Source: a phage
Sequence record: PZ179880.1
Length of the DNA stretch: 64,000 bases
Direction: 5' to 3' (one strand)
A program made the translations under genes and the position numbers. The notes beneath the pieces were generated by a model that made no database searches, was not told where the DNA came from, and was given only the letters and a program-made list of their open reading frames with translations. Below are positions 9,221 to 45,920 of the stretch, piece after piece; the first letter of the stretch is position 1; each line of letters begins with the position of its first letter.

Positions 9221-10808
<1,588 letters not shown>

Positions 10809-10816
10809 AATAAAAT

Positions 10817-10830
10817 GGGCCTTGCGGCCC
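10817..10830 (-). promoter_or_regulatory. hairpin between Shine-Dalgarno and start codon of denA (split RBS)
   Basis: mRNA AAGGAG-GU-GGGCC GCAA GGCCC-AUUUUAUU-AUG; hairpin would shorten a 23-nt SD-AUG spacing. Confidence 0.45.
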
Positions 10831-10835
10831 ACTCC

Positions 10836-12005
10836 TTAAAAATATTTTTTAAAACTCATCATAACTTTATCATCAACATCATTATCAATCTGTGCTACAA
10901 GGTAAGATGACAGTTCTACTTCTTGTGGTGCGGATTGAACATTATCAGAATTAAGGTATTCACGAATCCAAGGATATGGATGTTTAACCGGAGCATCGGT
11001 AATTGGGCATGGAAGACCACACTGTTTCATACGAGATACAGTTAAGTAATCAATAAAGCTCCACATGCTATTTGTATTTAATCCAGGAACATCACCATCT
11101 TTAAATAAATGAACCGCCCAGTCTTTTTCTTGGCGGTTAACTTCCATGAAAATATCAACTGCTTCTTGTTCACACTCTTGAGCAATTTTAACCCATTCAT
11201 CACCATCAGTGCCAAGTTGAAGTTGACGAATAATATATTGGGTGCCTTTAAGGTGAAGTTGCTCATCACGAGCAATGAACTTCATAATCTTGGCATTACC
11301 TTCCATGATTTCCATGTTCTTATGGAAGTTAAAGGTACATGCGAAAGATACATAAAAACGAATAGCTTCCAATGCGTTGATTACGTGCAGGCAGAGGTAA
11401 AGAGATTTCATTAGTGCTCGTTTAGTACATTCAACAACTTTGCCTAACTCTTCTTTACGAAATCCTTCTGATAAAATTCCTTCATAATCTTCAACCGCAT
11501 TCTGATATTCACGAGTCTTAACTAGAACGTCATCATAATAACGACCAATAGATTCAGCACGTTTCATGATAGCTTCATCTAGTACAATCTCATCAAATAC
11601 CTTCGATGGATCAGTATAAAGATTTCGCATGATATGGGTATATGAACGGCTATGAATAGTTTCACTAAAAGTCCATGTAGCAACCCATGTATCAAGACTT
11701 GGGTCTGAAATTAATGACATAAGTACTGCAGACGGTGCACGACCCTGAATGCTATCTAGAAGTGATTGATACTTCAGGTTGTTAGTAAAAATATCTTGCT
11801 GATACTGAGGAAGCTTGTTAAATTGTGCAGCATCCATCATTAAGTTTACTTCTTCAGGACGCCAGAAAAATGACAACTGCTTTTCGGTTAAATCTTCAAA
11901 AACTTTATGACGTTGAATATCATAACGCGCAATACCAAGACCTGAACCGAAGAACATAGGTTCTTTTAAAACATCAACTGGGTTTGTATTAAAAACTGTA
12001 GACAT
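10836..12005 (-). CDS. nrdB: ribonucleotide reductase small subunit
   Basis: 389 aa from MSTVFNTNP; di-iron/tyrosyl radical family; contiguous (no intron). Confidence 0.9.
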   Translation of the reverse strand: MSTVFNTNPVDVLKEPMFFGSGLGIARYDIQRHKVFEDLTEKQLSFFWRPEEVNLMMDAAQFNKLPQYQQDIFTNNLKYQSLLDSIQGRAPSAVLMSLISDPSLDTWVATWTFSETIHSRSYTHIMRNLYTDPSKVFDEIVLDEAIMKRAESIGRYYDDVLVKTREYQNAVEDYEGILSEGFRKEELGKVVECTKRALMKSLYLCLHVINALEAIRFYVSFACTFNFHKNMEIMEGNAKIMKFIARDEQLHLKGTQYIIRQLQLGTDGDEWVKIAQECEQEAVDIFMEVNRQEKDWAVHLFKDGDVPGLNTNSMWSFIDYLTVSRMKQCGLPCPITDAPVKHPYPWIREYLNSDNVQSAPQEVELSSYLVAQIDNDVDDKVMMSFKKYF

Positions 12006-31116: not shown

Positions 31117-31137
31117 AAGGGGGAAATTTCCCCCTTT
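31117..31137 (+). terminator. stem-loop downstream of gene 37 (weak terminator)
   Basis: GGGGGAAAUUUCCCCC palindrome followed by UUUGG. Confidence 0.4.
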
Positions 31138-31149
31138 GGAGTATAAATT

Positions 31150-31932
31150 ATGGCAGTAGTTGGAGTTCCTGGCTGGATTGGAAGTTCAGCCGTAAATGAA
31201 ACGGGACAGCGCTGGATGAGTCAAGCGGCTGGTCAATTAAGATTGGGTGTTCCTTGCTGGATGAGTCAATTTGCAGGTCGCTCACGAGAAATTATTCACA
31301 CGCTTGGAGCAGACCATAACTTCAATGGTCAATGGTTCCGAGATAGATGTTTTGAGGCAGGTAGTGCACCTATAGTGTTTAATATCACTGGAGATTTAGT
31401 ATCATATTCTAAAGATGTTCCTTTATTCTTCATGTACGGAGATACACCGAATGAATATGTTCAGTTGAACATACATGGTGTAACGATGTATGGCCGTGGC
31501 GGGAATGGCGGTAGCAATAGTCCTGGCTCAGCTGGGGGTCATTGTATTCAAAATGATATTGGTGGGAGACTAAGAATTAATAATGGCGGAGCTATTGCTG
31601 GCGGCGGTGGCGGTGGCGGCGGCGGGTATTATTCTCCTTTTTCACAAATGAGATTGACCTTTGGCGGTGGCGGCGGTCGTCCGTTTGGCGCACCGGGCGG
31701 ATCTATTGATATGCAATCAGGAGCAACTGCTGGTACTATTTCTTCGCCAGGCGCAGGGTCTGTGAACGGTATCTACAACGGCGGGTCTGGTGGTGAAGTT
31801 GGCTCCGCAGGAGGTAGATGTAATATTCGTGGTCAAGGATATGAATACGATGGCGGAGCTGCTGGTTATGCCGTCATAGGGTCTACACCGACATGGCAAA
31901 ACGTTGGAGCAATATATGGTCCAAGAGTATAA
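31150..31932 (+). CDS. 38: T2-type tail-fibre adhesin gp38 (glycine-rich motifs)
   Basis: 260 aa; poly-Gly blocks [10 protein letters not shown] and [13 protein letters not shown] separated by variable segments. Confidence 0.85.
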
Positions 31933-35469: not shown

Positions 35470-35477
35470 TAAAATTA

Positions 35478-45659: not shown

Positions 45660-45920
45660 TTATTTAAAACGGATAGTCGAATCCTTGAAGAATAGACCAG
45701 AACATACGGTTCCTTCTACTTTCTGCCCAGTAGGTCCAATAGCACGAAATCCAGTATGTTGGAAATCATTTTCAGAGCAACCGAACCAATTGTATCCAGT
45801 GATTTCAATATTAGTAAAACCGCTTGAAGACAAAACTTTGGTTGCGTTATCAGCATCAGTACATCCTACTAAAGATACTGCTAATACTAATGCCGCGATA
45901 GAACGATTAACATATTTCAT
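45660..45920 (-). CDS. putative lipoprotein
   Basis: Signal peptide with lipobox LVGC; start taken at ATG 45918-45920. Confidence 0.5.
   Translation of the reverse strand: MKYVNRSIAALVLAVSLVGCTDADNATKVLSSSGFTNIEITGYNWFGCSENDFQHTGFRAIGPTGQKVEGTVCSGLFFKDSTIRFK

Follow-up and report, generated by a model that had tools for sequence, protein, structure and literature searches.

The hairpin that separates nrdB from denA in a 64,000-nucleotide (nt) stretch of phage DNA (sequence record PZ179880.1; the whole stretch is referred to here as the window) may bridge a split ribosome-binding site that serves denA, the gene for the host-DNA-cleaving enzyme endonuclease II (EndoII); we put the probability of this reading at about 0.55. 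The window belongs to a Tequatrovirus, a relative of T4. In the proposed mechanism, the polycistronic nrdB-denA mRNA would offer a single Shine-Dalgarno (SD) sequence, AAGGAG, which overlaps the nrdB stop codon; a hairpin of 14–16 nt, capped by a GNRA or UUCG loop, would fold and be looped out of the mRNA track of the 30S subunit, so that the SD-AUG gap, too long to function at 23 nt, would shrink to the helix-base width and 7–9 unpaired nt, and initiation would occur at ATG 10808 to yield the 136-amino-acid EndoII. The step that we infer is the use by the 30S subunit of the distal SD across the folded hairpin. In the T4-type sequence the hairpin, together with the UUUUAUU that follows it, is probably also a partial intrinsic terminator or a stabiliser of the 3' end of the nrdB transcript; if so, mRNA that reads through would be the sole source of denA product, and little would be made.

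The minus-strand junction reads AAAAAAUAUUUU-UAA-GGAG-U-GGGCC-GCAA-GGCCC-AUUUUAUU-AUG-AAA-GAA (Table 1). A preliminary description of this DNA, made from the letters alone, had placed the only good SD 23 nt from the denA ATG, overlapping the nrdB stop codon, with a 5-base-pair (bp) GC hairpin between the two; both the coordinates and the distance were correct, and the hairpin is present, on the minus strand. AAGGAG is the sole SD-like sequence upstream of the denA ATG, and exactly 23 nt lie between its last G and the A of the ATG. Folding of the junction, which had been suggested as a check, gave a hairpin core with a pairing probability of 1.00 in a 143-nt context. The 5-bp stem has a computed energy of −10.0 kcal/mol, or −11.6 kcal/mol if U10831 and A10816 form a sixth pair; the nucleotides left unpaired between SD and AUG then number 1 + 8 = 9 or 7, respectively, and the distance of about 9 nt expected beforehand falls within this computed range. 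The fold of a 91-nt segment containing the junction had z = −2.39 relative to shuffled sequences.

The arrangement was compared among relatives by two scans of IMG/VR with DenA, which yielded 49 loci representing 26–27 distinct junctions whose DenA proteins were 58–100% identical. In all lineages but one, a TAA or TAG stop codon comes with (A)AGG or GAG and is followed in turn by 0–2 nt, the stem, the spacer, and the ATG. The conserved stem comprises 4–7 bp of GC, and the loops are mostly UUCG; the T4 group has GCAA or GUAA, and UUUG, UUAG and one loop of 5 nt also occur. The spacer from hairpin to ATG is 6–10 nt long and never contains an SD (26 distinct junctions), and the (A)AGG/GAG motif stands 0–2 nt 5' of the hairpin in 26/26, with GGAG or GGAU found in only about half of the lineages. 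Covariation was assessed on a MAFFT alignment of 27 junctions with a 7-pair helix, using shuffled alignments and helices slid along the alignment as controls. The helix cells were paired in 93.9% (22.9–68.2% for the slid helices; mean of 78.9% for the shuffles); double-sided changes occurred in 29 cells, a number reached by 0/500 shuffles (mean 9.2) and compared with 0–6 for the slid helices; and the covariation score was 0.445 versus at most 0.24 in the controls. The denA hairpin was the sole conserved structure that RNAalifold returned over 100 nt. The class of the loop changes among lineages while its stability is kept (UNCG and GNRA families), and this turnover points to selection for a stable fold rather than for recognition by a protein or other sequence-specific ligand.

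Within the window denA is a local outlier. A scan of the 64 kilobases found only about 31 GC-rich hairpins per strand comparable to that of denA; this low number, and the compensatory changes that maintain the helix in relatives, speak against a chance hairpin at denA. Five generic hairpins of the C(UUCG)G type on the minus strand (Table 1) lie directly after stop codons and are followed by GAGGAAA or AAGGAAA and an AUG, and several other hairpins are terminator-like, with stems of 7–9 bp and long U-runs. The start region of nrdB is canonical (AAGAGGAAAAAUUA-AUG) and that of rnlA is ordinary (AAGAGGAUACA-AUG, with a hairpin of its own in front). The only gene in the window with its SD 5' of a hairpin is denA; it is because the UUCG hairpins elsewhere all occur in the order hairpin-SD-AUG, and because nrdB and rnlA are canonical, that denA stands apart. 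A control sample of 122 GGGGCUUCGGCCCC hairpins gave a similar picture: 86/122 had the generic layout with a start 12–45 nt downstream, 72 of these 86 had an SD within the spacer, and an AAGG-type motif lay just upstream of the hairpin in about 15%. A second candidate for the order SD-hairpin-AUG in the window, at 45660–45643, was rejected; its ATG opens an open reading frame (ORF) of only 5 codons.

Table 1. Features of the nrdB-denA junction and of related hairpins in the window.
Feature	Position	Strand	Remarks
denA, endonuclease II (EndoII), GIY-YIG, 136 amino acids	10398..10808	-	ATG 10808-10806
U-rich spacer AUUUUAUU	10816-10809	-	8 nt, without SD-like sequence; also candidate terminator U-tract
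Hairpin, 5 GC pairs and GNRA tetraloop	10830-10817	-	GGGCC 10830-10826, GCAA 10825-10822, GGCCC 10821-10817
Unpaired or closing U	10831	-	
In-frame GTG, alternative start, 144 amino acids	10832-10830	-	First start in ORF list
SD sequence AAGGAG	10837-10832	-	Overlaps last two bases of nrdB stop codon
nrdB coding sequence	10836..12005	-	ORF list, annotation of relatives; stop codon TAA 10838-10836
mobE internal terminator, hairpin TTCCCGAGC-TCAG-GCTCGGGAA and UCUUUAU	12704-12683	-	Inside mobE ORF
Generic order stop codon-hairpin-SD-AUG	1526-1511, 37273-37258, 40150-40135, 40379-40362, 41343-41329	-	Hairpin scan

The preliminary description had also likened the denA junction to the structure-dependent initiation of T4 genes 38 and 25. 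The review of Uzan and Miller describes for these genes an intervening hairpin that cuts the SD-AUG distance from 22 to 5 nt (gene 38) and from 27 to 11 nt (gene 25), and mutations that destabilise the hairpin and reduce initiation at such split sites. The likeness holds for the sequence anatomy, which matches the T4 37-38 junction; bridging at denA itself is what we infer from it. Read from NC_000866, the 37-38 junction is gcaTAAGGAGAGGGGCTTCGGCCCTTCTAAATATG (TAAGGAGAGGGGCTTCGGCCCTTCTAAATATG), with the same anatomy as that of denA. In both, the upstream stop codon overlaps TAAGGAG, directly behind which comes a GC stem topped by a stable tetraloop; the short spacer from there to the AUG is A/U-rich, and the linear SD-AUG distance is about 22–23 nt; several denA relatives even carry nearly the gene 38 hairpin, AGGGGC UUCG GCCCCU. 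The two differ in that the T4 group has a GCAA loop at denA and a U-rich spacer of 7–8 nt, compared with the 5-nt UAAAU of gene 38; in that denA, a nuclease gene of the early/middle class, lies on the opposite strand; and in that the evidence is mutational for gene 38 and comes from sequence for denA. At the T4 26-25 junction, too, an intervening hairpin draws a distal SD nearer to the AUG. The gene 25 stem, however, is AU-rich, lies within the coding sequence of gene 26, is accompanied by several candidate SDs, and is shared by close T-even phages; that of denA lies outside coding sequence, is rich in GC and capped by a tetraloop, and is conserved far more widely (phages of Klebsiella, Enterobacter, Serratia and Salmonella). 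Thus denA displays every sequence-level feature of a gene 38/25-type split site, i.e., a distal SD, an intervening hairpin, a folded spacing of 7–9 nt in the window (6–10 nt across lineages, with 5–11 nt for the precedents), and covariation, and it is probably a further case of the established gene 38-type arrangement. The searchable literature yielded no description of the denA hairpin or of an nrdB-denA terminator, and an earlier mention cannot be excluded; nor did it yield a study of denA expression or a map of T4 3' ends.

Gene 38 of the window phage was considered as an internal positive control and set aside, since its start region is ordinary and the T4 split site is absent; the T4 sequence was used in its place. 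This gene encodes a T2-type glycine-rich adhesin (260 amino acids, MAVVGVPGW..., 31150–31932, plus strand) and not the T4-type chaperone. In front of it (31117–31152, plus strand), the hairpin AAGGGGG-AAAUUU-CCCCCUU is succeeded by GGAG and by a box, TATAAAT, that resembles a late promoter.

The T4 RefSeq record NC_000866 annotates denA at 137517–137951 from an in-frame GTG, as a protein of 144 amino acids (L037 3518–3952 in our set of loci), and the corresponding GTG is listed first in the ORF list for the window. This GTG had been described as lying inside the hairpin; it does not, its three letters being the final G of the SD, U10831 and the G that opens the stem. Translation from it is scarcely credible. 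Its first G is shared with AAGGAG, leaving zero spacing, and nothing SD-like lies upstream; an in-frame upstream start was present in only 3/23 lineages, which differ in the frame that the junction holds with respect to denA. Met-1 of the 136-amino-acid DenA aligns in 13 diverse homologues, the records of phages JEP6, RB9 and vB_EcoM_P8 annotate denA from the ATG, and the crystallised enzyme (PDB 2WSH) is a His tag joined to MKEIAT..., i.e., the 136-amino-acid form. Judged by these comparisons, the denA start in the T4 reference record is probably wrong and the ATG is favoured. The annotation of Klebsiella phage Marfa lists ribosome-binding sites, with none under or beside the denA start.

Several observations weigh against bridging. 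The looped-out spacing from GGA to AUG is 6–10 nt in the lineages compared (mean 7.9, standard deviation 1.2), but the linear SD-to-AUG distance (mean 23.5, standard deviation 1.4) is about as constant, so that spacing cannot separate bridging from a simple lack of insertions and deletions. In naked RNA the pairing of GGAG with the U-run is predicted at 63–96%, and it would hinder, not help, initiation. L025/L067 (the same contig) has neither hairpin nor SD, its nrdB stop overlapping the denA start as ATGA (L067 1990–2004), and in Aeromonas phages there is a 4-nt overlap between denA and the ORF upstream; coupling can thus suffice for denA expression. L079/L081, whose DenA is 51% identical, have a hairpin before denA but also a proximal SD of their own. 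Finally, the 5–6 GC-rich pairs in the window run directly into UUUUAUU (6 U in 8), and on a d'Aubenton-Carafa-type discriminant, computed with ViennaRNA energies in place of the original ones and serving for relative ranking only, the denA hairpin scored d = +24.7, within the range of the window's obvious terminators (+16 to +45) and comparable with the terminator-like hairpins at 35470, 19149, 2407 and 55820. Two side observations concern these lineages. L064/L023, a close relative of L067, retains a hairpin with the 5-nt loop. At L079 1940–2000, and likewise in L081, denA follows an unrelated ORF of 132 amino acids, not nrdB, with GGCGGGA-GAAA-UCCCGCC and UUUGUUGUG and then the proximal SD GAGGAAAGGA; the nrdB of L079 overlaps its next ORF, with no hairpin there.

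The last of these points bears on the main rival reading, in which the chief role of the hairpin would be to limit transcription into denA, as a Rho-independent terminator or attenuator (or as a stabiliser of the 3' end) behind nrdB; denA would then be expressed from the few RNAs that read through, via coupling or SD-independent initiation on a U-rich leader, and AAGGAG would be incidental. The denA score exceeds that of a verified weak terminator, the one internal to mobE (−1.6), which was mapped by Wilson and Edgell (2009) and terminates at 30–50%, and it is far from that of the T4 gene 38 hairpin (−34), the difference lying in the denA spacer, which gives the element its likeness to a terminator. 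At least 4 U occur in the first 6 nt after the hairpin in 18/26 lineages, the denA spacers are U-rich where the canonical start regions of the window are A-rich, and L079 carries its terminator-like hairpin before denA even though the upstream gene is not nrdB. We nevertheless regard termination as a doubtful primary role. Only 13/26 lineages score above 0, the stem is short, and the discriminant is weakened by its non-original energies. Lineages with strongly negative scores and tails of GUAAAGCU, ACUUUAUU or CUUUAGU keep both the hairpin and the 5' SD, as do the lineages with poor U-tracts (L006, L016, L018 and L030/31); what is conserved thus cannot serve termination only. An AAGG 5' of the hairpin was found in about 15% of the control UUCG hairpins, against all denA junctions, and the gene 38 element, of identical layout, is a documented translational enhancer. 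Termination and bridging could also coexist, and in the T4 group the hairpin may plausibly terminate transcription as an additional function. The built-in terminator scan made no call at the denA hairpin and was uninformative here, since it probably extended the stem through G.U pairs and so lost the U-run.

Ribosomes that end nrdB at the UAA might instead reinitiate at the denA AUG, the hairpin being of a generic kind whose placement is irrelevant. The overlap of the nrdB stop codon with the SD, the expression of denA through stop/start overlap in the hairpin-less L025/L067 and Aeromonas phages, and the great frequency of intercistronic hairpins in the window and in phage contigs generally are all consistent with such reinitiation. 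The generic hairpins and that of mobE do resemble the denA hairpin in having a short GC stem, closed by UUCG or GNRA and placed right behind a stop codon, and some of those with U-runs terminate partially, as does mobE. Yet the downstream genes of generic hairpins keep an SD 3' of the hairpin (5/5 in the window and 72/86 in the control), whereas at denA junctions the SD is 5' and the spacer is too short to hold one. In the window, moreover, stop and start do not overlap but are set 26 nt apart, counted from the first base of the UAA to the ATG, and a gap of this length containing a hairpin of −11 kcal/mol is a poor path for reinitiation. AAGG is also kept, in noncoding sequence past the stop codon, in all lineages. 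On balance, simple reinitiation appears improbable as the explanation of the denA site.

A further alternative follows from the pairing between GGAG and the U-run. The helix may be extended by G.U, A-U and G.U pairs (GGAG with UUUU) to 10 bp and −15.4 kcal/mol, thereby partly covering the SD, and both the minimum-free-energy and the centroid structures pair GAG or GGAG with the U-run (probabilities of 0.63–0.96 at 10835–10832). The hairpin would then sequester the SD and repress denA in the manner of the inhibitory hairpins of T4 homing endonucleases; inhibitory structures at I-TevI, mobE (of Aeh1) and segB are described in the review of Uzan and Miller. This we consider very unlikely. The extension consists only of G.U and A-U pairs, contributes about −3.8 kcal/mol, and is not conserved (alignment pair 22–39 is unpaired or gapped in 14/27); and without a folded core even a free SD would remain 23 nt away from the AUG.

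Two other candidate roles for sequences at the junction were rejected. Strong sites of the RegB endoribonuclease have the consensus GGAGRAYARAA, i.e., GGAG with an A-rich tract, and are unstructured, structure protecting them from cleavage; the GGAG here is followed by UGGGCCGC, which is the hairpin, and not by an A-rich tract. A long-range pairing of the denA AUG with upstream nrdB codons, predicted for the T4 type, found no conservation among 20 lineages. As a side observation, the A/U-rich sequence that surrounds the start codon, AUUUUAUUAUGAAAGAA (10800–10816, minus strand), resembles the A+U-rich, AUG-containing RegA operators quoted in the Uzan and Miller review; repression of denA by RegA is conceivable. 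No denA promoter was found within the 3' end of nrdB by a consensus scan, and among curated Rfam families none matched the element (best match 23.4 bits, against a gathering score of 58.7).

We also examined if the split layout occurs before other phage genes. The pattern AAGGA-N0-3-GGGCTTCGGCCC-N6-10-ATG gave 90 matches in IMG/VR (L092–L181), spread over many unrelated viral contigs. The ATG opened an ORF of at least 50 amino acids in 72/90 matches, compared with a baseline of 27.5% for all ATGs in the same loci (nominal p = 6e-25, the matches not being independent). The ORFs fell into 21 families: DenA (20 matches), T4-type gp38 (1 match), and 19 others including a tail protein and a Cas4-domain exonuclease. 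As judged by sequence, the SD-hairpin-AUG layout is a recurrent minority design in phages. In one small family (M.IIYL[KR]HP.HG, about 60–80 amino acids) a hairpin 8–10 nt before the ATG recurs even without an upstream SD. Tentatively, and with less than even confidence, such elements might be dual-purpose modules, in which a leaky terminator also bridges the start site on the read-through RNA so that the nuclease is gated twice, and might form a general, under-recognised class of phage start regions.

If bridging at denA is correct, this would be the third T4 example of initiation aided by looping out a hairpin, and of the three it would be the one conserved most widely. The choice of the denA start codon is settled on comparative grounds, with a practical consequence for the T4 reference annotation. 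The arrangement suggests how a potentially toxic nuclease is held at low expression. The matches before many unrelated phage genes hint that gene callers and ribosome-binding-site models that assume a spacing of 5–13 nt will mis-start or miss such genes. Were the dual-purpose module real, the downstream nuclease would be gated at both transcription and translation, and the arrangement would be more than a curiosity of genes 38 and 25.

With regard to the genomic setting, a 1-kilobase query around the junction matched 731 phage records, 503 of them at 95% identity or more, and the top match was Escherichia phage JEP6 (99.2%). The annotated gene order in relatives is nrdB, denA, rnlA, and all three genes are on the minus strand in the window. 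The nrdB ORF is uninterrupted here, whereas the nrdB of T4 and of RB9 is joined from two pieces around a group I intron that carries I-TevIII; the window phage lacks this intron and keeps mobE upstream.

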